A stretch of 64,000 nt of DNA, from NCBI GenBank assembly GCA_036351195.1, contig JAZBOQ010000241.1, positions 4,331 through 68,330 on the forward strand, read 5' to 3'. Position 1 is the first letter of the stretch, and the number at the start of each line of letters is the position of its first letter. Below, in pieces: positions 160 through 43,655 of the stretch. This stretch comes from Thermoanaerobaculales bacterium. GTDB taxonomy: Bacteria > Acidobacteriota > Thermoanaerobaculia > Thermoanaerobaculales > Sulfomarinibacteraceae. The notes under the pieces are model-generated. The model was not told the origin of the DNA. It saw nothing but the letters and a program-made list of their open reading frames with translations, and searched no databases. A program made the position numbers and the translations under genes.

Positions 160-1461
160 ATGGCCGCTTCCACACCCCGTGACCTTCTCATCGTTTTCGG
201 CTCGGTACAGCGCGTCATGCGCACCGAACGGCTGGCCCGCGAGCGCGGCCTCGACGTGGACACCGTACCGGCGCCGCGCTCGGTGAGCTCGCAGTGCGGC
301 GTCGTCTTGGAGGCCCGTTCCGACGAGGCGGGCGCGCTGTCGGATGCCCTGGCCACCCTCGACCTTTCGCCCACGGCGGTCTACCGCAACCAGCTCGGCA
401 CCTGGACGCCGTCGACCCTGCACTCGACCACGTCCATCGACGCGGTCAAGCTCACCGAGGGCTCGGCCTACGGAGGCTGCGGCGCCAAGCTCGCCAAGGG
501 TCTGCTCCACACCGTGCTCTGCGGATTGCCCCGGGTCGACTCCGACGCCCTCATCGTCGGTATCGAGTCCGCCGACGACGCCGGCGTGGTGAAGCTCACC
601 GACGAGCTCGCCATCATCCACACCACCGACTTCTTTCCGCCCATGGTGGACGACCCCTACACCTTCGGCCGCATCGCCGCCACCAACGCCCTGTCCGACG
701 TCTGGGCGATGGGCGGCACTCCGTTGGCGGCGATGAACCTGGTCAGCTATCCGCTCAAACAGCTCGGCAAGGAGACGCTGAAAGAGGTCCTCCGCGGCGG
801 TCTCGAGACCATGGCCGAGTCGGGAGCGGTCCTCGCCGGCGGCCACACCGTCGAGGGCGCCGAGCTGCTCTACGGCCTCGCCGTCACCGGCACCGTCCAC
901 CCCGACGCCATCTGGCGCAACGGCGGCGCCATTCCCGGCGATGTCCTCGTTCTGACGAAACCGCTGGGTACCGGGCTCGTGACCACGGCCGCCAAGGGCG
1001 GGCTGGCCCGGCCCGACGACGTCGCCACCGCCATGCGCTGGATGACGACGTTGAACCGCGACGCCGCCGAAGCGCTGCACACTTCCGCGCCGCACGCGGT
1101 CACCGACGTCACCGGCTTCGGCCTCGCCGGCCACGCCGCCGAGATGGCCGAGGCCTCGGGCTGCGCCATCGAGCTCGATCTCGCCGCGCTGCCGGCCATG
1201 CCCGGCGCCCTCGACGCCGCCGCCACCGGCCTCGTCCCGGTGGGCGCCGGCAAGAACCGGACGAGCATCGCCGCGGTCCTCGAGATCGCCGACGGCGCCG
1301 ATGAGCTGCGGGTCGATCTCGCCCTCGACCCCCAGACCTCCGGCGGCCTCCTCGCCGCCGTGCCCGCCGATCAGGCCGATGACCTCCTCCGCCGCCTTCC
1401 CGCCGCCGCCGTCGTCGGCCGCGTCGTCGACGGCGCGGCGGGGACTGTCCGGCTGCAGTAG
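160..1461 (+). CDS. selD: Selenide, water dikinase (selenophosphate synthetase) with N-terminal DUF3343 / putative Se-S carrier-like domain
   Basis: ORF 22..1461. SelD hallmarks: 'GSAYGGCGAKLAKG' (Cys/Lys active-site loop; Cys, not Sec), 'DDAGVV', 'TTDFFPPMVDDPYTFGRIAATNALSDVWAMGG'. The first ~75 aa, 'LLIVFGSVQRVMRTERLARERGLDVDTVPAPRSVSSQCGVVLE', fit the DUF3343 pattern with its conserved Cys. Start set at ATG 160 (AAGGA about 8 nt upstream); ATG 130 is an alternative. Confidence 0.9.
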   Translation: MAASTPRDLLIVFGSVQRVMRTERLARERGLDVDTVPAPRSVSSQCGVVLEARSDEAGALSDALATLDLSPTAVYRNQLGTWTPSTLHSTTSIDAVKLTEGSAYGGCGAKLAKGLLHTVLCGLPRVDSDALIVGIESADDAGVVKLTDELAIIHTTDFFPPMVDDPYTFGRIAATNALSDVWAMGGTPLAAMNLVSYPLKQLGKETLKEVLRGGLETMAESGAVLAGGHTVEGAELLYGLAVTGTVHPDAIWRNGGAIPGDVLVLTKPLGTGLVTTAAKGGLARPDDVATAMRWMTTLNRDAAEALHTSAPHAVTDVTGFGLAGHAAEMAEASGCAIELDLAALPAMPGALDAAATGLVPVGAGKNRTSIAAVLEIADGADELRVDLALDPQTSGGLLAAVPADQADDLLRRLPAAAVVGRVVDGAAGTVRLQ

Positions 1462-3825: not shown

Positions 3826-5039
3826 ATGAGTCTTTCCCTCATCGCCAAAAACGTCGGCGAGTCGGCCACCCTGAAGCTCAACGAGATCGCTGCAATCCTG
3901 CGCGCCAAGGGCGACCCCGTCATCCACCTCGGAGGCGGCGAGCCCAAGGGCAAAGCGCCGCTGGACGCGGTGCTCGCCGCCACCTCGGCGGTGGCCTCCG
4001 GCGAGATCCGCTACACCCCGCCCGACGGCACGCCCGAGCTCAAGAAGGCGATCATCCGCTACACCGAGGAGTTCTACGGCTTCCGCCCGGCGCCGGAGAA
4101 CGTCATGGCCTCGGGCGGCGCCAAGCAGGCCATCATGACCGCCCTGCACGCCCTCATCGACCCCCAGGAAGAGGTGATCTTCCCGGTGCCCTACTGGGTG
4201 AGCTACCCGGACATGGTGAAGATCGTCGGCGGCGTTCCGGTGGCGGTGGAGCCCGAGGACGGTTCCTTCGTGCCGCGCATCCAGGACATCGAGCAGGTGG
4301 TGGGCTCGTACACCAAGCTGGTGATCATCAACAGCCCCAACAACCCCTCCGGCGCGGTCTACCCCGAGGAATTCATCGCCGACGTCGTGGAGTTCTGCGA
4401 GCGGCGCGGGCTGTGGTTGATCATGGACGACATCTACCACCGGCTGGTCTTCGACGGCCGCAAGCCCATCAACCCCTACGACTACGCCAAGGACCGCAGC
4501 GAGAACTCCAAGCTCATCCTGGTCAACGGGGTCTCCAAGCAGTACGCCATGACCGGCTTCCGCATCGGCTGGGCGGTGGGCAACCGCAAGCTCATCGAGG
4601 CCATGACCAACATCCAGGGGCACGAGACCTCGGGCCCGTCGGTGCTGCTGCAGCACGCCGCGGTGGGCGCCATCAACGGCCTGCAGTCGCCGGTGGAGGG
4701 TCTGCGCGCCACACTCGAGAACAACCGCAACGTGCTGATCAACGAGCTCCGCGCCTTCGAGGGCGTGACCGTCGAGAACCCCGGCGGCACCTTCTACTCC
4801 TTCCCCGACTTCTCGCACTACTCCAAGGACTCGGTGGCCTTGTCGAAGTTCATCCTCGACAAGGTCCAGGTGCTGACCGTGCCGGGCGTCGAGTTCGGCA
4901 TGGAGGGCTACCTGCGGCTGAGCTTCTGCGGCACCATCAAGGAGATCACCGAGGGCATCGAGCGCATCAAGTGGGCGCTGGATCCCAACTCCCCCAACGA
5001 GCTCTACATCGGCGAGCGCAAGCTGGTGAGGGACTGGAC

Positions 5040-5043
<4 letters not shown>
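3826..5043 (+). CDS. Class I/II pyridoxal-phosphate aminotransferase (aspartate aminotransferase-like)
   Basis: 'INSPNNPSGAVY' and 'SKQYAMTGFRIGW' (PLP-lysine motif). 405 aa. GGAGG precedes the ATG. Confidence 0.85.
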
Positions 5044-6698
<1,655 letters not shown>

Positions 6699-6730
6699 AG
6701 GAGTCAGCTCACAGCGCAACGTCTTGCAAA

Positions 6731-6863
6731 ATACCGAATTCCAGGAGAGGGCGAAGCTCAAAGGCAGGTTGCCGGCGAGGGCGCCGACGCTACAAAGTAC
6801 TGAGCTCCCTTGTAGTGCCGGCGCCCTCGCCGGCGTGATCTCGTCCCGGTAAGGTCATCACTC
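6731..6863. repeat. ~133-nt structured repeat, copy 1 (inverted relative to copy 2 at 11487-11620)
   Basis: The reverse complement aligns end to end with 11487-11620 at roughly 90% identity by eye. The core is a long GC hairpin: 'gccggcgagggcgccgacgctacaa...ttgtagtgccggcgccctcgccggc'. Additional outer inverted arms ('cgtcttgcaaaataccg' / 'cggtttttgcaagagg') extend it to about 6715-6890. Lies between convergent genes. Confidence 0.8.
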
Positions 6864-6966
6864 GGACGATTTGCCGGTTTTTGCAAGAGGCTCAGCGATC
6901 AGCTGTCAGCTCATCACAGGGTTGTCGATCGACGTCGAGTCGGACCGGAGGAGGTGAGCCTCTCGC

Positions 6967-7794
6967 CTACGGTTCTTTCGAGTTTGCCGTGTCCGTGAGT
7001 CCCGAAACCGGTGCGAAGGAGAGGAAGAGCCCGACCTGGCAGAAGGCAACCAAAAGCCCGGCAACGACTCCCAGGATCGTTCCAGGAATCATGGCTCTGA
7101 GAGACTCGAACCACCAGCCGAGGAAGGTCGGGACGATCGCGGCGACGAGGGCGGGCGCCATCCACGTGACGAGTGTGAGCAATGATCTCACCGGCTGCCG
7201 GATGGTCCCCCACAGACCTGCGAACCACGCCGCGATCGCGGATCTCCGACGGCTGTCGCCAAGCACCCACGCTCCTCGGAGCGTGGCCATCCAGATCACT
7301 CCGGCGGCCATGAGACCCAGCAGGATCCCGGTCTCAAGATAGATGCCGAGCATCGAGTCGTCAAAAGCCTCGATCGCGCGTTCCTCGAGCGTGATGTAGA
7401 CCGCAGCGATGGCCGATTGAACGAGAACCAAGACCACCACCGAGGTCAGCCCGAGGCGCGCCCAGCGCCACCAGCCGAAGAGGCCGCGGCTGAGGGTCTC
7501 CGCCAGTCGGACCCCGCTCTTTCTCGAGTAGTGGAACCACCGAACCAGCCCGGCGTGCCAGAGCACCGTCCACGCCCACAGGGTGACGCAACCCGAGATG
7601 AAGGCGAGCGCCAACGGCAGCCACACCGGTTTCACGAGCTCGATCAGGATCAGGATGATCTCTCCGTCGGGGTGATCTCCCTGGGGCAGACCGGCGAGGG
7701 CCGGCCCCACCATGGTCCACAGCACAAGCCGGGCCGGCACGAAAACCAGAGCCGATACGACAAATACAACCACGACGATCCGCCACTGATCCAT
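6967..7794 (-). CDS. Integral membrane protein, unknown function
   Basis: Multiple hydrophobic spans ('VVVVFVVSALVFVPARLVLW', 'WLPLALAFISGCVTLWAW', 'LTSVVVLVLVQSAIAAVYI'...). Start trimmed to ATG 7794, just after the upstream peptidase stop at 7841. Confidence 0.6.
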   Translation of the reverse strand: MDQWRIVVVVFVVSALVFVPARLVLWTMVGPALAGLPQGDHPDGEIILILIELVKPVWLPLALAFISGCVTLWAWTVLWHAGLVRWFHYSRKSGVRLAETLSRGLFGWWRWARLGLTSVVVLVLVQSAIAAVYITLEERAIEAFDDSMLGIYLETGILLGLMAAGVIWMATLRGAWVLGDSRRRSAIAAWFAGLWGTIRQPVRSLLTLVTWMAPALVAAIVPTFLGWWFESLRAMIPGTILGVVAGLLVAFCQVGLFLSFAPVSGLTDTANSKEP

Positions 7795-11620: not shown

Positions 11621-11757
11621 TCTGCTAGAGGCTGAATTCCCATCGCATCCGCTCCATCAGCGCCACGTGAGATCGGTTGCGATGGAAGTCATCATTCATC
11701 ATTCATCATTTTGTGGCGGGAATGCGGCGGCGCCTCCATTTCGTTGCCCCTGGAGCC

Positions 11758-12294
11758 ATGAAAAACACCACCACGACGATCCTCTTTGCGGCTGCGATGC
11801 TCGCCGCCGCCGTTCCCGCCACAGGAGACGACGACATGCTCCAGCCCGGAATGCCCTTTCCCGCCTTCGAACTGCCCGCCCACGACGGCACCACGGTGTC
11901 GAGCGCCGATCTCGAAGGGACCCCCTACCTGATCTTCTTCTACCCCAAGGCCAACACCGGTGGTTGAACCGTCGAGGCCAACCAGCTGCGGGACAGCTGG
12001 TCCGACCTCCAGGCGCGCGGAGTCACCGTCATCGGCGCCTCCTACGACACCATCGAGGCCAACCGGTCCTGGGCCGAAAAGAACAACCTGCCCTTCAAGC
12101 TGCTCTCCGATCGCGACAAGACCCTCGCCGAGCAGGTGGGCGCCGCGCGCGCTCTGATCCCGGTTCCGAAACGGATCTCCTACCTCGTCGCCGCCGACGG
12201 CTCGGTGCTCATTGCCTACCCCAAGGTCGACCCCAAGACCCACGCCGAGCAGGTCCTCGCTGACCTCGACCGCGTCATCCCACCACGCGACTGA
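11758..12294 (+). CDS. Bcp-type peroxiredoxin with in-frame UGA (predicted selenocysteine) at the peroxidatic position
   Basis: The frame reads '..FFYPKANTGG[TGA 11965-11967]TVEANQLRDSWSDLQARGVTVIGASYDTIEANRSWAEKNNLPFKLLSDRDKTLAEQVG..RISYLVAADGSVLIAYPKVDPKTHAEQVL..' and ends at TGA 12292-12294. This matches the canonical Bcp motif FYPKDxTPGCTxEA. The ORF track stops at 11967. Start is uncertain: ATG 11758 gives a signal-like N-terminus, while ATG 11836 has a strong AGGAGA SD and would give a cytoplasmic form. Confidence 0.75.
11974..12009 (+). promoter_or_regulatory. SECIS-like stem-loop downstream of the peroxiredoxin UGA
   Basis: Upper stem CCAGCTG (11982-11988) / CAGCTGG (11994-12000) with G-rich apical loop CGGGA. 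Lower stem GAGG (11974-11977) / CCTC (12006-12009). The apical loop begins 24 nt after the U of the UGA, inside the range used for bacterial SECIS models. Confidence 0.6.
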
Positions 12295-12330: not shown

Positions 12331-12354
12331 GGCGGGCTGCAACAGCAGCCCGCC
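12331..12354. terminator. GC-rich hairpin between convergent genes (probable terminator)
   Basis: 'GGCGGGCTGC aaca GCAGCCCGCC' is a 10-bp stem. A second hairpin, CCCGGCC..GGCCGGG, follows at about 12359-12385. No clear U-tract. Confidence 0.45.
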
Positions 12355-15772: not shown

Positions 15773-16257
15773 GGTTCCTCTCCTGATGGGTGCTGGTTGC
15801 AATCGTTAAAATATCGCGTCTGAGGAACATCAACGCGGGCCGGTCCCGGTTTCTTCCTCCTCCGGTCTCCCTGTTCGTCGGATCGTGGGATCTTACCTGA
15901 TTCCGATCCTGATTCGACACGGTTCCGCGGCCCGGCGTACCACGACGAATCAGCCCTGTCCCCATATGAGACAGGAACCGGCGGAAATCGTCACACCGGC
16001 ATAGAAATAACCGGGCACGCTTATTGCGAATGGTTAGCGATTGGAGGGCTGGAAGCGTTGTGGGTTCAATTCAAATCGGGTGCTCTTCCCGCGACGATGT
16101 TTGACAAAGCGACGACAATCCATCCCGGCAAATCGAAGCTGAACGCCTATAATTTCCCTCTTATCGGAGGGGGCAGACCGATGTATCGCGGCGGCGGCAG
16201 CGGCCGTGAATACGATCGACCGCCAACCCGACGACACAATCCGAACCCGGAGAGACC

Positions 16258-19200
16258 ATGAAACGCACCACAACGGCCGTTCTCTGCCTGCTGACCATCG
16301 CCCTCGCCGCCACCAGCGCCACCGCCCAGACGCTGCCCCCGGCAATGAGCGGGACGCCTCCGACCGAGAGCTTCATCGGCGAGGGCTTTTGTTTCGACGC
16401 CGAGATGTCCAATCCGGGAGGCGACCCGGGATACGGACCGTACCTTCGGTTGATCGTTCCCACCGGATTGACCTTCGACTCGGCGTCGGTCTTCGGCCTC
16501 GACCTCGCCGGGCTCGGGTTGATCACCGACGCCGGGGTCTTTCCCCCGGCACCGGGCAACCAGCTCACCGACCCGTTGACCGGAACCCTCGTCACCGGTC
16601 CCGAAGGCTCCCGGCTCTACACCTTGATGGCGCCGGTCGGTTCGGTGGTCTTCGGTCAGCCCGACACCGTCTTCTCGATCTGCATGTCCATCGGCCTGCC
16701 GCCCGATGCCGTCGTCGGCACACCCCTCGACGTCACCCTGCAGCCGGTCTACCTCTTCGGCGACACGCCGACCGGCGACAACGGGCCCATCGAGGGAACC
16801 GCGTCGACCGATCCGGTCACCCCCACCCTCATCCTCTTCGAAAAGAACGCCACCGGGGGCAAGAACGCCGCCGGCCCCTCCGATACCGCCGGCTACACCC
16901 TGACGGCGGACGTCGCCAACCAACAGACGGTCACCGATCTCGTGTTCTCCGACACCCTGCCGGCGAGCTTCATCTACACCGGCCACTCGATCTCGGGCTC
17001 CGGCGTCGGGTGCACGACGACCACCGCACCGGCGGTGGGCGCCAACGGCGGACTTCTCGAGGTGAGCTGCGCCTCGGTGCTCGGCACCACCGGTGCGGGC
17101 GAGATCGTGGTCGACATCGCCGGGTACGCCGATGACATCCTCGACCACGAAAACTGCGACTTCCAACCGCTGCCCAACAGCGCGACTCTCGACGCACGCT
17201 ACCTCGGTCTCGGGCTGCCGCAGGCGTCGGACACCGCCGAGTTCGTCACCCAGCACCTGGTCATCGAGAAGAGCGCACCCGCCGGCGGAGCCCCCGGCTC
17301 CCCGCTGACCTACACCATCGACTTCCGGGTCTCGGACTACATCGACGCCGACAACCTCGTCCTCGTCGACACTCTTCCCGACGGGATCGACTTCACCACC
17401 GCCGGCCCCTTCACCCTGATCTACGAGGGCAGTTCCTACCCCATTGCACCGGTTGTCCAACAGGACACCCCGAGCGTCGGCCGGACGACGGTGACCTGGG
17501 ACCTGAGCGCCGCCATCGGCGCGATCCTCGCCGGCGGGACCTCGGGCTCGTTGAGCTACCCGGCGACGGTTCAGACGCTGTACGACGCAACCGGCATCGA
17601 GGTGTTGGCCAACGACGGTCTGCCCAACACGGTCAACGGCGCCTTCGACCTGGTCGGCGCCCTCAACCCCGCGTGCTTCGACAACTCGAGCGCCACCGTC
17701 ACGATCCTTCCGGTGAACATCAGCAAGACCATCGTCAACCCGGCGCCGGCGTACCGGCCGGGGGACACGGTGATCTTCTCGCTGACCATGTCGATTCCCT
17801 CCGGCGATTCGGCCGACATCGTCTTCACCGACTACCTGCCGCTGCCGGTCTTCGACGTGACCACCATCGATCCCACCTGGGGCGGCCCGAATGTCTACCC
17901 CGGACCGGCGACCTCGCCGGAATCTGCCGCGATCCTCGGCGCCACCCCGCCGCTGGTCACCCCCAACCCGGCGGAGAACTCGGTTCGCATCGAGTTTCCG
18001 GATATTCTCACCGGCGGCCTGCCCCAGACCCTCGAGGTCCGGCTGGCTGTCCAGGTCACCGATCTGCCCTTCTCCGACCCGCTGTTCCTGACCAACCTGT
18101 TCGCCGCCGAGTCCGCCAACACGCCGCAACAGACCTCCACCGACCTCCAGCCCGTCTTCCTCCAGGTCCGCGCTCCCGAGCTCGTGATCACCAAGGGCGT
18201 CTTCGCGACCACCAACGGCGGCGCCACGATCACCCCGGCGCCGCCGGCGAACCTCCTCGACGATCCCGTCGAGGGCGACCTCACCAACGGCGACGCCGGC
18301 GACGTCGTGACCTTCGTCGCCACCGTCGAGAACCAGGGCGGCGCCCCCGCCGGCAACGTCCGGATCTGGGACAGCGTGCCCGCCGGCCACACCGGCTGCA
18401 GCGTCGTCTCGGTGGTCAACGGCAACGGGACCCCATTGACCTTCACCGGCGACTTCTTCGACGCGGGCAACCCGCTGCTGCTCGACACCGATCTCATTGC
18501 CAACGATGAGGACCCGTCGACCTACGGCGCCGACACCGCCATCGTCACCTTCGCCTGCACCCTCGACACCGTGGTCGAGCCGCGCCAGGTGATCACCGAC
18601 ACCGCCTCGGCGCTGTGGACCACCGCGGTGGGCACTCCCGGTGTCGACGACTACCCCCGGATCGACGACGACGCGTCGGTGACCATCGCCGACACGACGA
18701 TTCTCAAGAGCGTGCTGCCGACGAACGCCGTCGTCGGCCAGGTGGTGACTTACACGGTCACGGTGACGGTCCCGGGCGGCACCTCGAGCCCGGTGACATT
18801 GACCGACGACCTCACCGGCCGGGTCGCCTTTGTCGACTGCCTCTCGGTCAGCGCCAGCCCCGGGATGTCCACCACCATCGGCAGCTTCGCCGACGCCTGC
18901 AACGACCCGACCAATCCGACGGTGACCGGCAACGGACGCTATCTGAACTTCGACCTCGGCACCGTCACCAATCCGGGCTCGCCCAATGCCGATGCCGGCA
19001 CGGTCACCTTCACCTACACCGCGGTCGTACTCAACACGAGCTCGGTGAACCATGGCAACCAGCCACGCAACCGGGCGACCTGGAGCTGGTCCGGAGGTTC
19101 GGTGGAGAGCCGGGTCCGCGTCACCGTCCAGGAGCCGCAGCTCCGCGTCGTCAAGGAAACCGTGCCCGAACCGCTGCCGCCGGTGGACGCCGGCGACACC

Positions 19201-22200
19201 GTCTCCTTCCGGATCACGGTGGATCACACCAACCCATTGGTGGTTCCGGCCTTCGACGTCGCGTTGTCCGACGTCCTCCCGGCCGAGCTCAGCTACGTCG
19301 CTGCCACCCTCGACTGCACCGGCGGCACGCTCGTACCGGACAGCTGCGGGTTCGCCGGCGACACCCTCACCGCGAGCTGGGCGCTCTTCCCGACCACCGG
19401 CCAGACGGTGATCACCTTCGACGCCATCATCGACATCGCTGCGGCGCCGGGAACCATTGCAACCAACACCGCGTCGATGCTGTGGTCGAGCCTCCCCGGC
19501 GCGGTCTCCGGCCCGCTGAGCCCCTACAACAGCAACTCGTGCGAGCGAACCGGCGTCGAGGCGCCGCTGCTGCCCTACTGCGGTAGCGGCAACGACTACA
19601 ACGCGCTGGATCCGGCCACCGTGACCATCGCTTCGGTCGGCCTCGCCAAGGGTATCGTCGCCACCTCCGAACCTTCCACCGGGGACGGCCAGTACCGGGC
19701 CGGGATCGACGATCTCACGGTGGGCGAGACCGCGACCTTCCACATCACCGCGACCATCCCCGAGGGGACCACTCCGCTGGTCGTGATCACCGACACCCTG
19801 CCCTACACCAACGGGGTGATGGAGGTGGTCTCGGCGTCGCTGGTCAGTATCGGCGGCAACCTTCTGCCGACCAACGTCCCCCCGATCACCGACATCAGCG
19901 ACGCCCAGCTCGCCGACGGACTCGTCGACACCGTCAGCTTCGACTTCGGCCAGGTGATCAATATCCCCGACGGAGCAGTCACTCTCGATGACGAGCTCGT
20001 GGTCGCGGTCGTCGGCCGACTCGTGGACATTCCGGCCAACCTCAACGGCGACGAACTCACCAATGACGCCTCGGTTCAGTTCGGCCCCGGCCTCGACTCC
20101 ACCGCATCGGCGGACGTCGACGTCGTCGAGCCGCTGCTGCAGATCACCAAGACCGGCAATGCCACCACGGGCGACGCCGGCGACATCGTGACCTATACCG
20201 TGACCGTCGACCACGTCCCGCCGACCCCCGCGTCCACTGCGAACGCATTCGATCTCGTCATCACCGACGCGATCCCGGCGGGAATGACCTATGTCGCCGC
20301 ATCGTTGACCGACACCGGAGCGGTGCCCGCGGACAGCCTCGGCGAGGCCGCGGGAGTCATCACCGCGGTGTGGAATGAGTTCCCGCTGGGCAGCATCGGC
20401 GAGTTCACCTTCCAGGCCTCCATCGACCCGGGCGCTCAGCCGGGCGCCAACCTCAACAACACCGCCAACGGTCAGTGGGACACCCTCCCGGCCGACGGCG
20501 ATCCCAACGAGCGAACCCACACCGCGTCGGACAGTCACAACGTTCTCATCACCTCTCCCGGAATGACCAAGACCGTCTTCGCCACCTCGGAGCCGTCCAC
20601 CGGCAACGGCATCAACGGCCCCGAGCCCGATCTCACCATCGGCGAAGAGGTGACGTACCGCTTCGTCGCCACCTTCCAGGAGGGCGTCACGCCCACGACC
20701 CTGGTCGAGGACCAGCTGCCGACGGGGACCGCGATCCTATCCCACGTCAGCTCGCGAGTGGTCTCGGTCGGCGGCAACCTCAGCGGCCCGAGCCTCCCGA
20801 CGGCGGGTACTGCCGGGGTTCCCAGCGACAGCAACACCGACACCTACGACGATCTCGTCGTCTGGTTCCTCGGCGACGTGACCAACGTTCCCGACGGGGT
20901 GGAGGACGACAACGACCGAATCGAGTTCGAGGTGGTCGCGATGGTGGTCGATGAGCCGCTCAACCAGGGCGGTCTCGACGATCTCTCCAACACCGCCACC
21001 GTCGGCTACACCGGGGGATCGGCCTCGGCGGTCGCCGACGTCGATTTCGTCGAGCCCGAGCTCCGGATCACCAAAAGTGTGACCGACCCGGCGGACGGCT
21101 TCGTCGATGCCGACGATGTCGTCACGATCGAGCTGCTTATCGAGCACTTCGGTTCGACCGCGGACGCGTTCTCGGTGGAGATCACCGACGTCTTCCCAGA
21201 CCCCGGTCTGTCGTGGATCAACGACGGAACCGTCACCACCACCTGCCCGGGCGGCGTGGTGGTCGACTCCACCGGCGACCCGACCATCGAGTTCGCCATC
21301 GGAACCCTGTCGATTGCCGACGCCAGCTGCGTGGTGTCCTACCAGGCACGCGTCGACGCCATCGTCCAACCCGGCGTGACCTACACCAATCTGGCCACCG
21401 CCCAGTGGGACTCGACCCCGGCCTTCGTCGCCGGTGAGACCCGCCGCCAGACCACCACCGACACCGCGAGCGTGACCGTGCTCGCACCGTCGCTGGTCAA
21501 GATCGCGCAGAGCACCAGTCTCGCCGACACCGGGATGACCTTCTACCACCCGGCGGACTTCGATCTCGCCATCGGCGAGACCGTGACCTACCAGCTGACC
21601 GTCATCTTCCCCGAAGGCCGGACCGACACCGCGGTGGTAACCGACACGCTGCCCGCCGACGCCGTCGGCGTCATCGAAGCGGTCGGCGCCAGCGTCTCGT
21701 CCCTCGGCGCCAGTCTTTCGACGACCCTGCCGGGCACGCCGCAGTTCTTCGACAACAACCTCGGCGACGGGCTCGACGACACCGTGGTCTTCGACTTCGG
21801 CACCGTGTTCAACTCGCCCGACGGGGTGTCCAACGACGACGACCGGCTGGTGCTGCTCGTCGTCGGTCGCGTCGTCGACGTCACCGACAACACCGACGGT
21901 GACTGGCTGACCAACACCGGCACCTTCACCTTCGCCACCGGCGGGCCGCTCACCGACACCGCCCTGATCGACGTCGTCGAGCCGGACATGGTGGTGACCA
22001 AGAACATGGGCCCGGTGGTCAATGGGCTGGTGACCCTCAGCGTCCAGATCGCCAACAACGGCACCGCGCCGGCCTACGACATCATCCTCGAGGACGTGCT
22101 CAACGACAGCCTCTGGAACACCGCGACGATCAGTCCGCTGGTGGTGCCGGCGGGCTACACCTTCAGCACCGCGGCAGGCCCCGGCGCCGGCGACACCACC

Positions 22201-25200
22201 ATCACCATGGCCTCGGACGCCGGCTCCTCGCCGCCCGACAACTCGGTGGAACCGGGCGAGATCATCGCCTTCCAGTTCCAGGTCGCCCTCGCCGACCCGC
22301 TCAACCCACCGGCGACGGTGCCCAACACCGCCACCAACACCCAGACCACGTCACTGCCCGGAAGCGATCCCGACGAGCGTGAGCTGCCGCCCACGTCGGG
22401 CAGCGACGTGCTCGATCTTCCGATCCTCGACGCCACCAAGAGCGCCACCCTCATCGCCGACAACGACGGCTCGGGAACGGTCTCGCCCGGCGACATCATC
22501 CGCTACACGATCTCCGTCACCAACACCGGCGCCGGGGCCGCCACCCTGGTCGTCGTCACCGACACGCCCGATCCCAACGGCATCTTCCTCGCCGGCACGG
22601 TGGTCGCGCAGCCGGGCGGCACCGTGCTCACCGGGAACACCGGCGGGGACACGACCGTCGAAGCGGCCTTCCCGGCCATCGCCGCCAACTCCACCGCGAC
22701 CGTGACCTACGATGTGGCGATCCCGGCCCCGTTGGCGAACGGCATCGACCAACTGGTCAACCAGGCGGTCATCGACAGCGAGCAAACGCCCCCGTTCTCG
22801 TCGGACGACCCGACAACGGGTCCCGACGACGACCCGACGGTGGTGCCCATCGACGCCGCCCCAGACATCGCGGTGGCCAAGACCGACGGCGCCACCAGCA
22901 CCATTCCGGGCGCGACCCTGACCTACACCGTGACGGTGCAGAACCTCGGCAACCAGAACGCGGTCAACGTCGTCCTGACCGACGCCGTCCCCGCCGGTAC
23001 GAGCTTCGTCAGCGCCTCGGATGGCGGCGTCGAGGTCCCGCCGGGCAGCGGCAGCGTGGTCTGGCCGGCCTTCGACCTGCCCGCCGGCGCAACCGTCGTC
23101 CGCACACTGGTCGTGGATGTTCTGAATCCGCCGCCCGCCGGGCTCGCCACCATCGTCAACACCGCAACCGCGGCCGACGACGGAACCAACGGCCCGGATC
23201 CCAACCCGGGCAACAACACCGGGATCGACACCAATGACCTGATCTACGCCGATCTCGCGGTCACCAAGACCGACAATCCCGACCCGGTGGTCGCGGGCGA
23301 GACCCTCACCTGGACCCTCACCGTCACCAACAACGGTGTCTCCGCCGCCACCAACGTCGTCCTCGACGACACCATCCCGGCCGGCGTCACCGTCAACTCG
23401 ATCTCGGCGCCCTGCGCCGCCGGCTTCCCCTGCACCATCGGCAGCCTCGCCGCCGGAGCGAGCGCGACCGTGACCATCGACGTCACCGTCGCCGCCGACA
23501 CCACCGGCACGTTGTCGAACAGCGCCACCGTCGCCGCCGACGAGGTCGACCCCGACCCGACCAACAACACGGACACCGAGCCGACGACCGTCGGTCAGTC
23601 CACCGACCTCGAGGTCGTGAAGTCCGACAACACCGACCCAGCGGTGGCCGGCGAAGGCCTCGTCTGGACCCTTATGGTGACCAACAACGGCCCGTCCGAC
23701 GCCACCGGCGTCGTCCTCGACGACACCATCCCGGCCGGCGTCACCGTCAACTCGATCTCGGCGCCCTGCGCCGCCGGGTTCCCCTGCACCATCGGCGACC
23801 TCGCCGCAGGTGCGTCGGCCACCGTGACCGTCGATGTCGCCGTCGACGCCGACCTCACCGGCGTGCTCGACAACACCGCGACGGTCACCGGCAACGAGCC
23901 CGATCCCGACCCGAGCAACGACACGGACACCGAGCCCACCGACATCATCCCGGTGGCCGACCTGGTCGTCACCAAGACCGGCCCGGGCAGCGTCGCCAGC
24001 GGCACCGATCTCGTCTTCTCCATCGAGGTCGAGAACCTCGGACCCTCCGACGCCACCGCGCTGCTCATCACCGACCCGACGCCACCCGGACTGAGCTTCG
24101 TGTCGGCCACCGCGCCGTGCGCCGCCGGTTTCCCGTGCTCGGTGCCGGCCCTCGCCGCGGGCTCGAGCTTCAGCTTCGACGTCACCTATGCGGTGCCGGC
24201 GGGCTACACCGAGCCCGATCCGATCCTCAACACCGCGTCGGTGAGCTCCGAGGTCCAGGACCCGGATCCCACCAACAACACCTCATCGTCGTCCACCGCC
24301 GTCGACCGGACGCCGGTAGCCGATCTCCAGATCGTCAAGACCGGACCGCCCTCGGCTGCCGTCGGATCGACCGTGACCTACCAGCTGGAGATCAGCAACC
24401 TCGGCCCCGATGATGCCGCCGATGTCGTCATCGACGACCCGACCCCTGCCGGCCTCGGCTTCGTCTCGGCCTCCGCGCCGTGCGCTGCCGGTTTCCCGTG
24501 CACCCTCGGCACCCTCAACTCCGGCGCCGCGATCACCGTGGAGGTGACGTTCTCCATCCCGCCGGGTTATACGACCCCGGATCCCATCGCCAACACCGCC
24601 ACCGTGACGAGCTCCACCGACGACCCCGATCCGTCCAACAACACCGACACCGACACGACGCCGCTGGGCGCCGACACTGCCGACCTCGCGCTGACCAAGA
24701 TCGGGCCGAGCCAGGCGCTGCCGGGCGACGACGTGAGCTACACGATCACCGTCGTCAACAACGGTCCGGCGACCGCCACCGGCGTCGTCCTCGACGATCT
24801 GACCCCCGCCGGGTTGAGCTTCGTCTCGGCCACCGCGCCTTGCGCCGCCGGCTTCCCGTGCGCCCTGGGCGACATCGTGCCGGACGGGACCGTCCTCGTC
24901 TCGGTCACCTTCAACATCCCAGCCGGCTACGGCGGACCCGATCCGGTGGTCAACACGGCCGCGGTCACCGGCAACGAGCCCGACCCCGATCCGTCCAACA
25001 ACACCGACACGACCTCTACCGGTTTAGCAGGCGACGCCGCCGACGTGGGCGTGGTCAAGACCGGTCCCGCAGCCGCTCCCCAGGGCACCGACGTGACCTT
25101 CGAGATCACGGTCACCAATAACGGCCCGGGCGCCGCCACCGCCGTCACCCTGGATGATCCGACCCCCGCGGGCCTGATCTGGGTCTCGGCCAGCGATCCC

Positions 25201-26610
25201 TGTGCTGCCGGCTTCCCGTGCTCGCTGGGCGACATCGCCGCCGGCTCGGCGATCACCGTCCAGGCGACCTTCTCGATCCCGGCCGACTACCTGGCGCCGG
25301 ATCCCATCGTCAACACCGCCACGGTGAGCACGACCTCGCCGGACCCCAACCCGGGCAACGACAGTTCGTCGCACCCGGTGACCCTGGCTCCGGTGGTCGA
25401 CCTCGCGGTGGTCAAGACCGACAGTCCCGACCCGGTGGTCGCGGGCACCGCCCTGACCTGGACCGTGACCGTCAGCAACAACGGACCGTCCGACGCCACC
25501 GGCGTCGTCCTCGATGACACGCTGCCGCCGGAGGTCACCCTGGTCTCCATCTCGGCGCCCTGCGCCGCCGGCTTCCCCTGCACCATCGGTGATCTCGCCG
25601 CCGGCGCGAGCGTCGATGTGGTGGTGGACGTCACGGTCAACCCCGATGCCACCGGAACCATCACCAACACGGCAACGGTCACCGGCAACGAGACCGACAT
25701 CGACCCGTCCAACAACACCGACACCGAGCCCACCGGGGTCAACCCCGAGGCCGATCTGGCCGTGGTCAAGACCGCGAGCCCGGAGCCGGTGGTTGCGGGC
25801 GACACGGTGACGTGGACGATCACCGTGACCAACAACGGGCCGTCCGACGCCACCGGCGTGGTGGTGGACGACACCTTCCCGCCCGAGGTCACCGTGACGT
25901 TGATCTCGGCGCCCTGCGCCGCAGGCTTCCCGTGCACCATCGGTGATCTCGCGGTGGGGGCCTCGGTGGTCATCACCATCGACGCCACCGTCGACGTCGC
26001 GACCCAGGGGTCGATCACCAACACCGCAACCGTGTCCGGCAACGAGCCGGACCCGGACCCGGGCAACGACACCTCCACGGTCGTGACGACGGTGGACTAC
26101 GTCGAGATCGGGATCACCAAGTCGGTAAACGACCCGCCATCGGGCGCCTGGCAGCTCGGCGACGTCGTCACCTGGACCATGGAGGTCGTGAACACCGGCA
26201 CCATCGAAGCGACGGGCATCGTGCTCACCGACGACATCCCCGACCTCACCGCCTACTACCCCGAGAGCATCGTTCTCGACGGGCTCTCACTCAGCGATGC
26301 CGACGATGGCGACGCCGGCCGGTTCGACGTCGTCAACAACCGCATCGTCGTCGACCTCGATCCGATTCCGGCCGGAGGAAGCCGCATCGTCACCTTTGCA
26401 GTGGCGATCAGCTCCCAGCTTCCCAACGGGTCGCACATCATCGAAAACACCGCCGCGGTGACATCGCCCGCCGGTTCAGTGACCTCCGATACGGTGGTCG
26501 TCCCGGTCATCGTCACCGGCATTCCCACGGTCTCGGATCTCGGCCTCGCCGTGCTGATCATGCTCATCGGCCTCGCCGGGATGATGGTGCTGCGGCGCAG
26601 AGTCTACTGA
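16258..26610 (+). CDS. Giant (3450 aa) secreted DUF11 / conserved-repeat-domain surface protein with IPTL-CTERM-like sorting tail
   Basis: Signal peptide 'MKRTTTAVLCLLTIALAATSATAQ'. Dozens of Ig-like modules of the pattern 'L.(I/V)TK....P.PV.AG..LTYT(L/V)TV.N.GPS.AT.V.L.D.(L/I)P.G..'. C-terminus 'IPTVSDLGLAVLIMLIGLAGMMVLRRRVY*' (26521-26607) consists of an IPT(L/V)S motif, a TM helix and an Arg cluster. Confidence 0.9.
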   Translation: MKRTTTAVLCLLTIALAATSATAQTLPPAMSGTPPTESFIGEGFCFDAEMSNPGGDPGYGPYLRLIVPTGLTFDSASVFGLDLAGLGLITDAGVFPPAPGNQLTDPLTGTLVTGPEGSRLYTLMAPVGSVVFGQPDTVFSICMSIGLPPDAVVGTPLDVTLQPVYLFGDTPTGDNGPIEGTASTDPVTPTLILFEKNATGGKNAAGPSDTAGYTLTADVANQQTVTDLVFSDTLPASFIYTGHSISGSGVGCTTTTAPAVGANGGLLEVSCASVLGTTGAGEIVVDIAGYADDILDHENCDFQPLPNSATLDARYLGLGLPQASDTAEFVTQHLVIEKSAPAGGAPGSPLTYTIDFRVSDYIDADNLVLVDTLPDGIDFTTAGPFTLIYEGSSYPIAPVVQQDTPSVGRTTVTWDLSAAIGAILAGGTSGSLSYPATVQTLYDATGIEVLANDGLPNTVNGAFDLVGALNPACFDNSSATVTILPVNISKTIVNPAPAYRPGDTVIFSLTMSIPSGDSADIVFTDYLPLPVFDVTTIDPTWGGPNVYPGPATSPESAAILGATPPLVTPNPAENSVRIEFPDILTGGLPQTLEVRLAVQVTDLPFSDPLFLTNLFAAESANTPQQTSTDLQPVFLQVRAPELVITKGVFATTNGGATITPAPPANLLDDPVEGDLTNGDAGDVVTFVATVENQGGAPAGNVRIWDSVPAGHTGCSVVSVVNGNGTPLTFTGDFFDAGNPLLLDTDLIANDEDPSTYGADTAIVTFACTLDTVVEPRQVITDTASALWTTAVGTPGVDDYPRIDDDASVTIADTTILKSVLPTNAVVGQVVTYTVTVTVPGGTSSPVTLTDDLTGRVAFVDCLSVSASPGMSTTIGSFADACNDPTNPTVTGNGRYLNFDLGTVTNPGSPNADAGTVTFTYTAVVLNTSSVNHGNQPRNRATWSWSGGSVESRVRVTVQEPQLRVVKETVPEPLPPVDAGDTVSFRITVDHTNPLVVPAFDVALSDVLPAELSYVAATLDCTGGTLVPDSCGFAGDTLTASWALFPTTGQTVITFDAIIDIAAAPGTIATNTASMLWSSLPGAVSGPLSPYNSNSCERTGVEAPLLPYCGSGNDYNALDPATVTIASVGLAKGIVATSEPSTGDGQYRAGIDDLTVGETATFHITATIPEGTTPLVVITDTLPYTNGVMEVVSASLVSIGGNLLPTNVPPITDISDAQLADGLVDTVSFDFGQVINIPDGAVTLDDELVVAVVGRLVDIPANLNGDELTNDASVQFGPGLDSTASADVDVVEPLLQITKTGNATTGDAGDIVTYTVTVDHVPPTPASTANAFDLVITDAIPAGMTYVAASLTDTGAVPADSLGEAAGVITAVWNEFPLGSIGEFTFQASIDPGAQPGANLNNTANGQWDTLPADGDPNERTHTASDSHNVLITSPGMTKTVFATSEPSTGNGINGPEPDLTIGEEVTYRFVATFQEGVTPTTLVEDQLPTGTAILSHVSSRVVSVGGNLSGPSLPTAGTAGVPSDSNTDTYDDLVVWFLGDVTNVPDGVEDDNDRIEFEVVAMVVDEPLNQGGLDDLSNTATVGYTGGSASAVADVDFVEPELRITKSVTDPADGFVDADDVVTIELLIEHFGSTADAFSVEITDVFPDPGLSWINDGTVTTTCPGGVVVDSTGDPTIEFAIGTLSIADASCVVSYQARVDAIVQPGVTYTNLATAQWDSTPAFVAGETRRQTTTDTASVTVLAPSLVKIAQSTSLADTGMTFYHPADFDLAIGETVTYQLTVIFPEGRTDTAVVTDTLPADAVGVIEAVGASVSSLGASLSTTLPGTPQFFDNNLGDGLDDTVVFDFGTVFNSPDGVSNDDDRLVLLVVGRVVDVTDNTDGDWLTNTGTFTFATGGPLTDTALIDVVEPDMVVTKNMGPVVNGLVTLSVQIANNGTAPAYDIILEDVLNDSLWNTATISPLVVPAGYTFSTAAGPGAGDTTITMASDAGSSPPDNSVEPGEIIAFQFQVALADPLNPPATVPNTATNTQTTSLPGSDPDERELPPTSGSDVLDLPILDATKSATLIADNDGSGTVSPGDIIRYTISVTNTGAGAATLVVVTDTPDPNGIFLAGTVVAQPGGTVLTGNTGGDTTVEAAFPAIAANSTATVTYDVAIPAPLANGIDQLVNQAVIDSEQTPPFSSDDPTTGPDDDPTVVPIDAAPDIAVAKTDGATSTIPGATLTYTVTVQNLGNQNAVNVVLTDAVPAGTSFVSASDGGVEVPPGSGSVVWPAFDLPAGATVVRTLVVDVLNPPPAGLATIVNTATAADDGTNGPDPNPGNNTGIDTNDLIYADLAVTKTDNPDPVVAGETLTWTLTVTNNGVSAATNVVLDDTIPAGVTVNSISAPCAAGFPCTIGSLAAGASATVTIDVTVAADTTGTLSNSATVAADEVDPDPTNNTDTEPTTVGQSTDLEVVKSDNTDPAVAGEGLVWTLMVTNNGPSDATGVVLDDTIPAGVTVNSISAPCAAGFPCTIGDLAAGASATVTVDVAVDADLTGVLDNTATVTGNEPDPDPSNDTDTEPTDIIPVADLVVTKTGPGSVASGTDLVFSIEVENLGPSDATALLITDPTPPGLSFVSATAPCAAGFPCSVPALAAGSSFSFDVTYAVPAGYTEPDPILNTASVSSEVQDPDPTNNTSSSSTAVDRTPVADLQIVKTGPPSAAVGSTVTYQLEISNLGPDDAADVVIDDPTPAGLGFVSASAPCAAGFPCTLGTLNSGAAITVEVTFSIPPGYTTPDPIANTATVTSSTDDPDPSNNTDTDTTPLGADTADLALTKIGPSQALPGDDVSYTITVVNNGPATATGVVLDDLTPAGLSFVSATAPCAAGFPCALGDIVPDGTVLVSVTFNIPAGYGGPDPVVNTAAVTGNEPDPDPSNNTDTTSTGLAGDAADVGVVKTGPAAAPQGTDVTFEITVTNNGPGAATAVTLDDPTPAGLIWVSASDPCAAGFPCSLGDIAAGSAITVQATFSIPADYLAPDPIVNTATVSTTSPDPNPGNDSSSHPVTLAPVVDLAVVKTDSPDPVVAGTALTWTVTVSNNGPSDATGVVLDDTLPPEVTLVSISAPCAAGFPCTIGDLAAGASVDVVVDVTVNPDATGTITNTATVTGNETDIDPSNNTDTEPTGVNPEADLAVVKTASPEPVVAGDTVTWTITVTNNGPSDATGVVVDDTFPPEVTVTLISAPCAAGFPCTIGDLAVGASVVITIDATVDVATQGSITNTATVSGNEPDPDPGNDTSTVVTTVDYVEIGITKSVNDPPSGAWQLGDVVTWTMEVVNTGTIEATGIVLTDDIPDLTAYYPESIVLDGLSLSDADDGDAGRFDVVNNRIVVDLDPIPAGGSRIVTFAVAISSQLPNGSHIIENTAAVTSPAGSVTSDTVVVPVIVTGIPTVSDLGLAVLIMLIGLAGMMVLRRRVY
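23248..26100 (+). repeat. Eight tandem ~119-aa DUF11 modules, each with the invariant Cys pair P-C-A-A-G-F-P-C
   Basis: Unit starts: DLAVTKTD, DLEVVKSD, DLVVTKTG, DLQIVKTG, DLALTKIG, DVGVVKTG, DLAVVKTD, DLAVVKTA. Each unit contains '(S/T/D)(A/D)PCAAGFPC(T/S/A)(I/L/V)'. There are two subtypes: units 1, 2, 7, 8 versus units 3-6. Confidence 0.85.
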
Positions 26611-38751: not shown

Positions 38752-39353
38752 CAGGCACCCCCTTCCTTGATGCGGGTCCAGAACTCGGAAGCCGACTCCA
38801 GATTGGCGAACATCTCTTCGTGGAACTGCGGGATCACCACGCTGGCGATGAGTTTCTCTCCGGGAACGACGGCCTCCACCGCGAGCTCCACGGCGACCTC
38901 GACCTCGGCCAACGGGCCCGAGAGCACGCTGTAACCCTTGCCTCCGAGGTTGTCCGCCAGTCGGATCTCCACCAGGCTGACCTCCGCCCCCTTGAGGGCG
39001 CGGTCGACGGCCCCGACGGTGGCGGCCACGGTGCGGGTTTCCACCAGACCCAAGGCTTCCCCGGTGGGTCGGCCCCGGCGTCCGAGAATCGCTTCTTTCA
39101 CATCCGGGTGCGCCGCCGGGAGAAAGACGTCGTCCAACAAAGCCGACTGCCCCGCGTCGAGACCGGCCTCGTAGGACTCCTCGACGCAGGCCACATCGCC
39201 GCCCAGCAGCACCAGGTAGTGTCCGGGGTGGATGGTCCCGGAGCAAGCGGTCGCCACCGGGGCGCGCTTGACCATGGCGTCTCCGGCCATCACGCCGATC
39301 GCGATGGAGGAGTACTCGAGCAACGCCACGGCAGGCTGATGGATCAGGCTCAC
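38751..39353 (-). CDS. Tandem-domain BMC shell protein (BMC-T, PduT-like)
   Basis: Two BMC domains: 'AVALLEYSSIAIGVMAGDAMVKRAPV' and 'ALGLVETRTVAATVGAVDRALKGAEVSLVEI'. 200 aa. GTG start overlapping the aldehyde dehydrogenase stop (GTGA). Confidence 0.75.
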   Translation of the reverse strand: MSLIHQPAVALLEYSSIAIGVMAGDAMVKRAPVATACSGTIHPGHYLVLLGGDVACVEESYEAGLDAGQSALLDDVFLPAAHPDVKEAILGRRGRPTGEALGLVETRTVAATVGAVDRALKGAEVSLVEIRLADNLGGKGYSVLSGPLAEVEVAVELAVEAVVPGEKLIASVVIPQFHEEMFANLESASEFWTRIKEGGA

Positions 39354-40789: not shown

Positions 40790-40802
40790 CAGCGTCTCCC
40801 GC

Positions 40803-40900
40803 GGTGCCAGGTCAGACGATTCAGACGGTTTTCAATGGTCCGTTTCGGCTTGCTGAATCGTTCCCGAAGGAAAACCGTCTGAATCGTCTGACCTGGCACC
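40803..40900. repeat. 98-nt hairpin element inside the BMC operon, copy 1
   Basis: 31-bp arms 'ggtgccaggtcagacgattcagacggttttc' (40803-40833) and 'gaaaaccgtctgaatcgtctgacctggcacc' (40870-40900), with a 36-nt loop. Fills the gap between the pentamer stop (40908) and the aldehyde dehydrogenase start (40789). Confidence 0.85.
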
Positions 40901-40907
40901 GTTCCGT

Positions 40908-41222
40908 TCAGCTCGCCCACTCGCCGTCCGCAGGCGTCTTGCGGTAGCGGACCTCGCCGCCCACCTCCCAGCTGTCCACGATGGCCATGACCACCGCGTC
41001 ACAGGGCCGGTCGGCGGTCATCTCGGTCTGCCGGGCCGACGATCCCGAGGCCCAGAGCACCACGTCCCCCTCGCCGGCCCCGACGCTGTCCACCGCGACC
41101 ACCTGGCCGTCGGCCTCCTCGCCGTGGAGATCGAGGCGCTGCACGAGCAGGAACTTCTGCCCGACGAGGCCCTCATCCTTGCGGCTGGCCACCAGCGTGC
41201 CGGCCACCTTGCCGAGGAGCAT
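40908..41222 (-). CDS. BMC vertex pentamer protein (EutN/CcmL/PduN family), copy 1
   Basis: '[31 protein letters not shown]...[24 protein letters not shown]....DAVVMAIVD'. 104 aa. Confidence 0.85.
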
Positions 41223-41527
41223 CAGCTCTTCCGCTTGGCCGACGTCGGCTCACCGCGGCCCAGGGGCAGCACCGAGTCGATGTTGCCGTGCGGGCGGGCG
41301 ATGACGTGGGTGGAGACAACTTCACCGATGTTCTGGGCGCCCCGAACACCGGCTTCCACCGCCGCCTTCACCGCCGCCACGTCACCCCGGACAACCGCCG
41401 TCACGTATCCGCCGCCAGTCTTTTCGTAGGACACCAGCTCAACTTTGGCCGCTTTGACCATGGCATCGGAGGCCTCGACCATTGCCGCGAACCCCCGCGT
41501 CTCGATCATTCCCAATGCTTCAGCCAT
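41222..41527 (-). CDS. BMC hexamer shell protein (BMC-H, PduA/EutM type)
   Basis: '[58 protein letters not shown]...[11 protein letters not shown]' is a canonical single BMC domain. Confidence 0.9.
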
Positions 41528-41552
41528 TTCCTGCTCCTTTCGTATCTCAGTT

Positions 41553-41650: not shown

Positions 41651-41656
41651 AACCCA

Positions 41657-43642: not shown

Positions 43643-43655
43643 GCCCGCCTCCTCA

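Follow-up and report, generated by a model that had tools for sequence, protein, structure and literature searches.

A probable selenocysteine peroxiredoxin of the Bcp type with a signal-peptide-like extension in a Thermoanaerobaculales bacterium

We analysed a peroxiredoxin gene with an in-frame TGA codon in a 64-kb stretch of DNA (hereafter the window) from a Thermoanaerobaculales bacterium (GenBank assembly GCA_036351195.1, contig JAZBOQ010000241.1, positions 4,331 to 68,330 of the forward strand). All positions are given in window coordinates, and residues are numbered for the long form of the protein, which starts at ATG 11758. An initial annotation, made from the letters of the window without database searches, had proposed that the TGA encodes selenocysteine (Sec, U) at the position of the peroxidatic Cys. 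Reading frame +1 runs from ATG 11758 through 69 sense codons to TGA 11965-11967 and, as that annotation had stated, stays open for another 108 sense codons up to TGA 12292-12294. An alternative start, ATG 11836, lies in the same frame, and 11965-11967 is its single in-frame TGA. The translated context of this codon, FFYPKANTGG-[TGA]-TVEANQLRD, was found exactly as it had been quoted, and one continuous gene extends across the TGA. The features of the locus are collected in Table 1.

Table 1. Features of the peroxiredoxin locus and the selD gene in the window
Feature	Position	Strand	Details
selD (selenide, water dikinase), Cys type GGCGAK	~430..1461	+	TIGR00476, 370 bits (cut-off 125); tblastn probe
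Three perfect tandem CATCATT heptads	11690..11710	+	Just upstream of the GGAAT motif; read from the sequence
Promoter-like motif GGAAT-N19-GTT (extracytoplasmic function sigma type)	11719..11745	+	GGAAT 11719-11723, GTT 11743-11745
Predicted selenoprotein, full coding sequence	11758..12294	+	178 residues including U70, then stop TGA 12292-12294
Long-form start and signal-peptide-like extension MKNTTTTILFAAAMLAAAVPATG	11758..11826	+	By inspection; conserved in orthologues
Internal Shine-Dalgarno-like AGGAG and second start	11823..11838	+	AGGAG 11823-11827, 8-nt spacer, ATG 11836 (Met27)
UGA codon, predicted to be read as selenocysteine	11965..11967	+	U70 in the long form, U44 in the short form; peroxidatic residue in P63-K-A-N-T67-G-G-U70
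Putative bacterial SECIS, upper stem-loop	11981..12001	+	8-bp stem ACCAGCUG/CAGCUGGU, loop CGGGA 11989-11993

First, we asked how TGA is used across the window. In a six-frame scan for in-frame TGA codons with at least 25 stop-free, coding-like codons on each side, 11965-11967 was the only site to qualify. As a true stop, TGA is used more often than any other codon in the window, ending 11 of 18 confident open reading frames. With this stop usage and a single in-frame candidate, it follows that the organism does not use UGA as a sense codon in general.

Next, we compared the gene with its homologues. A scan of one genome per prokaryotic species gave 80 related loci, from each of which the codon aligned to the window TGA was extracted. 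This codon is TGC or TGT in 61 loci and TGA in 19, which bears out the claim that the TGA replaces the peroxidatic Cys codon. The TGA loci belong to six Thermoanaerobaculia/Acidobacteriota metagenome-assembled genomes (L001-L006), two Holophagae (L013 and L017), six Acidoferrales, two Nitrospinota and three Desulfobacterales/'delta proteobacterium' genomes, and so fall into four lineages (Thermoanaerobaculia/Holophagae, Acidoferrales, Nitrospinota and Desulfobacterales). Beyond these 19 genome loci, TGA was also present at the Sec codon in three distinct metagenome loci that we checked.

L001-L006 are the closest relatives of the window gene (75-83% identity); they keep the TGA and have their gene neighbourhood in common with the window. 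Neither of the outcomes that the initial annotation had regarded as damaging, genuinely truncated close homologues or a downstream half free of constraint, was found. In all six, the frame downstream of the TGA is open and gap-free to codon 147 and ends at a stop within a few codons of the window's. Pairwise dN/dS between these relatives and the window gene ranges over 0.06-0.27 upstream of the TGA. Downstream it ranges over 0.22-0.38, and dS there is 0.46-0.82. Homology thus runs on past the TGA together with the open frame, and from that frame and the dN/dS values it follows that the downstream codons are translated and under purifying selection.

Acidobacterial loci of both Sec and Cys forms have a common gene order: M1 peptidase, hypothetical protein, HU, (NUDIX), Bcp, mechanosensitive channel(s) (MscS) and DUF481. 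Because this order is common to the two forms, Sec and Cys alternate within one orthologous gene. The acidobacterial Sec forms fell within the acidobacterial Cys forms in a neighbour-joining tree, separate from the Sec clades of other phyla; the window subclade had 89% bootstrap support, and deeper nodes were weak. The TGA also co-occurs with a downstream hairpin, with loss of the Cys at +5 from the Sec position, and with a change from Pro to Gly at -2. The pairing of Sec and Cys codons at one site is the decisive evidence for the Sec reading, and we conclude that the internal 'stop' codon is almost certainly selenocysteine at the catalytic site.

We then examined the hairpin as a candidate selenocysteine insertion sequence (SECIS). 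According to a rule that Zhang and Gladyshev are said to have put forward in 2005, a bacterial SECIS is a stem-loop directly 3' of the UGA with an apical-loop G about 16-37 nucleotides (nt) away. The window hairpin fits this geometry: it has an 8-bp stem, and the start of its CGGGA loop is 24 nt away when counted from the U of the UGA and 21 nt away when counted from the final A. The initial annotation had described a stem-loop with the same spacing; its geometry stood, and its coordinates (11974-12009) proved approximate only. A possible lower, outer helix would lengthen the hairpin to about 11970-12015, but the register of this helix shifts between relatives and covariation could not be demonstrated for it.

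A hairpin follows the UGA directly in every Sec form, and three clades have arrived at three different sequence solutions: CCAGCUG-CGKGA-CAGCUGG in the acidobacterial clade, GCAGUGCG-GGA-CGCACUGC, shifted by one base, in Desulfobacterales, and GCGUC-CGA-GUU-UCG-c-GACGC in Acidoferrales and Nitrospinota (clade C). The last of these is 98% paired in eight sequences and has two compensatory pairs, a result matched by 9 of 500 shuffles. Over a 40-nt stretch, the mean shuffle z score was -1.77 in 20 Sec forms versus +0.11 in 18 Cys forms, of which 13 were acidobacterial and most others came from GC-rich genomes; the 40-nt core of the window itself had z = -2.7 against mononucleotide shuffles.

Across nine Sec sequences of the acidobacterial clade, no synonymous change is seen in the codons of the stem (N, Q, L, D and S) and the stem sequence is invariant, the only variable base being in the loop (CGG/CGU), while the mean for the rest of the gene is 0.40 pairwise synonymous codon differences. 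Such quiet is supportive of a constraint on the hairpin but not unique to it, since among 113 codon runs of equal length, 6 (counting that of the hairpin itself) are as quiet or quieter. In the acidobacterial subclade L162-L166, R stands in place of Q, which makes a G.U pair out of an A-U pair and leaves the stem intact. Altogether, the hairpin is compatible with a bacterial SECIS and is moderately supportive of Sec insertion.

The selD gene that had been claimed for the window is present, on the same strand as the peroxiredoxin gene. Its N-terminus is fused in frame to a selenium/sulphur-carrier-like domain (PF11823, about 90 residues, 48.5 bits), with coding from about 130-160; the fusion frame is open to the window edge, leaving its true start uncertain. 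The fusion is kept in the metagenomic relatives L082-L091, which are 66-84% identical over the full length. The remaining large open reading frames of the window are neither selA nor selB, and ARAGORN found no tRNA-Sec in the window, in the 19 Sec-form loci or in 11 selD loci. We infer that selA, selB and tRNA-Sec are present elsewhere in the source genome. Acidobacteria have already been reported to contain selenoproteins (three families, four proteins; PMC1794560).

In L083, the closest relative with a long flank, the region upstream of selD encodes a sodium:solute symporter, a ROK kinase, a class-V aminotransferase, a baeRF-family protein and FHA/SpoIIE proteins. The baeRF-family protein is an eRF1-like member of baeRF family 10 (4053-5243 of that locus, minus strand), and the aminotransferase has a NifS/selenocysteine-lyase-like fold (5707-7035, plus strand).

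To characterize the enzyme itself, we searched domain and structure databases with the product, writing Cys for the internal TGA. Pfam AhpC-TSA (PF00578) matched residues 31-150, spanning the TGA, with 106 bits (cut-off 26, E = 1.5e-30), and the best solved structure was 3DRN, a Bcp (E = 2.3e-20 over short-form residues 2-146). The best NCBIfam model was thiol peroxidase Bcp (NF006960), at 104.9 bits and so below its 140-bit equivalog cut-off; the predicted protein is Bcp-like and not an equivalog of E. coli Bcp. P63, T67, U70 and R139 make up the canonical peroxiredoxin (Prx) active site, and three of them (P63, T67, R139) are conserved. In alignments R139 falls opposite the Arg of 3DRN and 5ENU, and all of 28 homologues have it.

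No Cys occurs anywhere in the 178-residue product, and the residue at +5 is Asn, in agreement with the earlier observation that no resolving Cys follows the Sec. This absence places the predicted protein with the 1-Cys-type members of the Bcp family. We compared 84 sequences for a Cys at +5, among them 23 Sec forms (the window, the 19 genome loci and the three metagenome loci). A resolving Cys is found there in 58 of 61 Cys forms versus 2 of 23 Sec forms, although these counts are not phylogenetically independent, the Sec forms making up about five lineages of which four are without the Cys. The only Sec forms that retain it are L013 and L017 (TPGU-TKQAC). Gly replaces Pro at -2 in the window subclade (TGGU); in the subclade L162-166 the Pro is kept, and the +5 residue is N, S or T.

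We propose that the gene encodes a Bcp/PrxQ-type peroxiredoxin with selenocysteine as its peroxidatic residue. The hairpin at 11981-12001 would act as the SECIS and recruit SelB with Sec-tRNA(Sec), so that UGA 11965-11967 would be read as Sec and translation would continue to 12292-12294; the SelD encoded in the window would supply the selenophosphate. In the P-x3-T-x2-U pocket, the selenolate of U70, assisted by R139, would reduce peroxide and become a selenenic acid. Because the protein has no resolving Cys, and indeed no Cys at all, this selenenic acid would be reduced directly by an external thiol partner, either a thioredoxin-fold protein or a small thiol. Such a '1-Sec' cycle, from selenolate to selenenic acid to reduction by an external thiol, is the most likely chemistry. 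A gene for a thiol reductant partner (thioredoxin, TlpA, DsbD or CcdA) was not found in the conserved neighbourhood. The long form would carry a cleavable signal peptide and be exported to the cell envelope. We hold the proposal as a whole, a SECIS-decoded Sec Bcp that is fed by SelD, uses 1-Sec chemistry and is probably exported, to be very likely correct.

One of the two starts had been predicted to give a signal peptide, and the extension between them does have such a pattern, which is conserved in orthologues. A K close to its N-terminus is followed by a hydrophobic core of 12 residues and by A-T-G ahead of DDD. By inspection, MK-NTTTT-ILFAAAMLAAAV-PATG|DDD fits the n-, h- and c-region (n-h-c) arrangement of a signal peptide, for which a positive n-region, a hydrophobic h-region and small residues at -3 and -1 of the cleavage site are expected, although a conserved internal start also exists. 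A hydrophobic n-h-c extension was present in 20 of 21 acidobacterial orthologues, in Sec and Cys forms and despite their divergence, and in L013 and L017 it contains a lipobox-like LVTGC. ATG 11758 is invariant in the window and L001-L006, and among these seven sequences every indel between the two ATGs has a length divisible by three, which does not hold further upstream. The gene call on an identical contig from the Joint Genome Institute (JGI) also begins at ATG 11758.

We found no sigma-70-like promoter in the region upstream of ATG 11758. The motif GGAAT-N19-GTT does not vary among the window and L001-L006. At the equivalent site, 15 of the 21 acidobacterial loci have it, as do L162, L164 and L166, covering both Sec and Cys forms; the whole window has two matches to it on both strands together. 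In the window, L001-L006, L162, L164 and L166, the GTT always lies 12 nt before the first ATG. GGAAT-N18/19-GTT resembles promoters of extracytoplasmic function (ECF) sigma factors of the SigR/SigH thiol-stress type. We infer that the motif is an ECF-type promoter, in which case the mRNA would have a very short or absent 5' leader. The lack of a good Shine-Dalgarno sequence before ATG 11758 would fit such a nearly leaderless mRNA, and since the motif lies upstream of ATG 11758 at this 12-nt spacing, the extension would fall within the transcript, at its 5' end. Just upstream of the motif, the CATCATT heptads could be a regulator binding site; related heptad runs (CAKCATT, four copies) occur at the same place in L003 and L005, and L001, L004 and L006 are without them.

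The conservation of the internal start raises the alternative that the selenoprotein is real but purely cytoplasmic, starting at ATG 11836 as a 152-residue protein, with the upstream stretch untranslated or not acting as a signal peptide. ATG 11836 has a strong AGGAG at 8 nt, and GGAG is found 4-11 nt before the internal ATG in 21 of 21 orthologous loci, mostly built from the rare Gly codon GGA (12% of the window's Gly codons). Met27 is at least 90% conserved, and most Bcp proteins begin at the equivalent Met. The Sec clades of other phyla are without an N-terminal extension, as is L019, where a stop two codons upstream leaves the internal ATG as the sole start. A purely cytoplasmic protein does not account well for the invariance of ATG 11758, for extension indels that come in multiples of three, for the n-h-c pattern with its LVTGC variants in L013 and L017, or for a promoter-like motif held at a fixed distance from the upstream ATG. 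Altogether, these data support a translated signal sequence, and the internal start may additionally yield a second, cytoplasmic product. We consider it somewhat probable that at least part of the product is exported; a purely cytoplasmic enzyme is possible but less likely. A limited full-text literature search found no published description of an exported Sec-peroxiredoxin.

We also asked how the gene is represented in protein collections. In a search that covered 5.8 billion predicted proteins, the full-length matches were Cys forms only ('peroxiredoxin Q/BCP', 60-69% identity). The search also returned more than 80 clusters of 88-109 residues that resemble separately called C-terminal halves. 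The 16 of these that we read all start within the SECIS-coding stretch or immediately downstream of it (LEANRLRDSW... and VTVVGVSYD... are two such beginnings), and the three traced to contigs each lie directly after a TGA-terminated AhpC-TSA fragment of 68-73 residues, in the same syntenic neighbourhood. On the JGI contig L081, which is identical over 1.5 kb, the window's gene is called as a 69-residue protein. The Sec form is therefore widespread in metagenomes and routinely split in annotation: the gene is mis-annotated as fragments of 69 and 91-109 residues, more than 80 fragment-length clusters appear to be alike in this, and none of the fragment clusters that carry a name is named as a selenoprotein. 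Reading the UGA as Sec would restore a complete antioxidant enzyme and would mark Thermoanaerobaculia and Holophagae as Sec users. One JGI metagenome protein that is otherwise of the Sec type (P0017, 181 residues) has Trp at the Sec position (TPG-W-TLEANQLRDSW). TGG, one base from TGA, would give this Trp, which we attribute to either an inactivating mutation or a base-call error.

Several observations weigh against our proposal. The folding energy of a 61-nt stretch had z = -0.14 against dinucleotide shuffles, unexceptional for GC-rich sequence, and covariation is lacking in the clade of the window, where the stem never varies. A stem rule fixed beforehand (six or more contiguous base pairs in the stem, a G-containing loop of 3-7 nt and a loop start 20-31 nt from the codon) failed to separate the two forms, being satisfied by 14 of 23 Sec and 15 of 61 Cys forms, and we did not use it as evidence. 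Rfam gave no SECIS or other meaningful match, either across the whole window at gathering thresholds or at 11900-12100 with a permissive E-value; sub-threshold matches to HgcC and mir-584 were taken as chance. The genes selA, selB and tRNA-Sec are all absent from the window, and the 10 kb upstream of selD in L083 contain none of the three either. As for export, the case comes from inspection of the sequence, and the conserved internal Shine-Dalgarno sequence and ATG would allow the main product to be the short cytoplasmic form.

The remaining alternatives concern the UGA codon. If the gene were a pseudogene or truly truncated, the TGA would be a real stop and only an N-terminal fragment of 69 (or 43) residues would be made. 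Gene callers do stop at this TGA, as in L081, and selA, selB and selC are not in the window. A true stop is hard to reconcile with a TGA kept in 19 genome and three metagenome loci and followed by an open, gap-free frame under purifying selection. The Prx fold also needs both halves, with Pfam and PDB matches spanning the TGA, and the catalytic R139 lies downstream of it; we regard truncation as very improbable.

The UGA might also be recoded without Sec, either by near-cognate read-through as Trp or Cys or by a lineage-wide codon reassignment, since selD is the only part of the Sec-specific machinery that we saw. This does not sit well with UGA being the commonest real stop, with only one in-frame candidate. 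The site is moreover that of a redox-active Cys, where Sec is a known replacement, selD and a SECIS-like hairpin are present, and the family is a documented selenoprotein family (PMC9312934). We give non-Sec recoding very little credence. A sequencing or assembly error for TGC or TGT, which would make the protein an ordinary Cys Bcp, needs a single-base difference, and the Trp of P0017 shows that the position can vary or be miscalled, but TGA is found in independent assemblies from many studies, including the identical JGI contig, and together with the hairpin, the loss of the +5 Cys and the Pro-to-Gly change, so that such an error is extremely unlikely.

With selenocysteine as the preferred reading, we compared the gene with known systems. 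Peroxiredoxins that contain Sec in a T/SxxU site became known in 2001-2006. Those of COG1225/Bcp type are a listed selenoprotein family (PMC9312934, PMC13188914, PMC1794560), which stands in tables of prokaryotic selenoproteins as 'Prx, TxxU motif' (representative WP_011365628.1; PMC9312934, PMC13188914). The initial annotation had called Sec-peroxiredoxins rare, but this family is not particularly so: it had 12 members in 2006, mostly from Deltaproteobacteria and Clostridia (PMC1794560), and is among the prominent selenoproteins of marine (Global Ocean Sampling) metagenomes (PMC9312934). Five independent Cys-to-Sec events have been inferred within the Bcp-type Sec-Prx family (PMC1794560).

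By sequence, the window gene has the fold, motif and Sec/Cys pairing of the 'Prx, TxxU' family, here in an acidobacterial lineage. Like that family, it combines the AhpC-TSA/Bcp fold, a predicted Sec in P-x3-T-x2-U, Cys homologues and a SECIS-like hairpin immediately 3' of the UGA. Three loci from Desulfobacterales (L048, L067 and L073) are probably of the described group. The window gene differs from those clades in being only 38-47% identical to them, in nesting among acidobacterial Cys orthologues at a syntenic locus, and in having another hairpin sequence and a signal-peptide-like extension.

The initial annotation had pointed to PrxU, a Sec-containing peroxiredoxin from Eubacterium acidaminophilum (Sohling et al., 2001, cited in PMC9312934); this comparison proved loose, and the 'Prx, TxxU' family is the proper comparator. 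Both are bacterial peroxiredoxins, PrxU with Sec as the peroxidatic residue and the window protein with Sec predicted there, but PrxU belongs to another Prx subfamily and has about 230 residues, versus 152-178 in the window protein. We rejected membership in the PrxU family, as NCBIfam NF040737 scored 30.3 bits versus a cut-off of 270.

The solved Bcp structures (Sulfolobus solfataricus Bcp1 3DRN and Bcp4 3HJP; Xanthomonas Bcp 3GKK and 5IIZ) have the same fold and active-site residues, except that they contain Cys and not Sec. These enzymes are of 1-Cys or atypical 2-Cys type, and the window protein is like the 1-Cys enzymes in being without a resolving Cys. The close Cys orthologues differ from it in that most keep the +5 Cys (C-x4-C), where the window protein has Asn.

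Two further systems offer parallels for the predicted location and chemistry. Cho and colleagues reportedly described in mBio in 2012 a cell-envelope peroxiredoxin of Caulobacter, PprX, which is reduced through an electron transporter of the DsbD/ScsB type. Like the window protein, for which this is predicted, it is a peroxidase of the Prx fold with an N-terminal export signal and would need a periplasmic thiol reductant. PprX differs in using Cys, and the window gene has no adjoining DsbD/CcdA or TlpA-like gene. Sec glutathione peroxidases use one Sec that alternates between selenol and selenenic acid; external thiols reduce it, and no internal resolving Cys takes part. The chemistry that we propose for the window protein would be analogous, although glutathione peroxidases are an unrelated thioredoxin-fold subfamily with the motif UxxT, and the window protein does not match Pfam GSHPx.

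The locus offers a clean natural series, with Sec and Cys orthologues at one syntenic site and Sec forms with and without a resolving Cys. Such a series could show what a peroxiredoxin gains from Sec; one possibility is that it resists over-oxidation after losing the resolving Cys. Should export prove real, a selenoprotein would be at work in the bacterial cell envelope, which raises the question of its source of reducing power. The general picture of bacterial selenoproteomes is unchanged. All of these elements can be joined in a single reading: a Cys-free '1-Sec' Prx, exported by a Sec-type signal peptide (a lipoprotein in some relatives) and made from a near-leaderless thiol-stress ECF mRNA, with a cytoplasmic isoform from the internal start, and with a path from TPGC...C through TPGU...C to TPGU...N/S/T or TGGU...N recorded in one syntenic orthologue. 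We offer this combination tentatively and think it unlikely to be right in every part.

Beyond the peroxiredoxin gene, a 10-bp GC-rich inverted repeat lies at 12331-12354, 37 nt past the stop. Because it has a T-rich tail on the minus strand, it looks like a terminator for the convergent mechanosensitive-channel gene, and it may serve both genes.

The rest of the window contains several other genes. On the plus strand, 49625-51622 encodes a rubredoxin fused to a glutamate synthase-like flavin mononucleotide domain protein, followed by rubrerythrin; this pair is typical of oxidative-stress defence in anaerobes and microaerophiles and fits a Sec-using lifestyle. A bacterial microcompartment (BMC)-like cluster occupies 38754-43756 on the minus strand, with BMC-domain shell proteins at 38754-39422 and, weakly, at 41660-42301, an aldehyde dehydrogenase (39353-40831), an aldolase of the DeoC/LacD family (42270-43097) and RpiB (43097-43756). 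Also on the minus strand are an 880-residue protein with multihaem cytochrome c motifs and TPR repeats (45358-47997), adjoining a cytochrome b gene at 48152-49570, and a gingipain-like peptidase C25 with a MAM-like C-terminal domain (51953-55333). Finally, one open frame spans 3466 codons at 16210-26607 on the plus strand, and its composition is strongly that of coding sequence (GC content at third codon positions 0.91).

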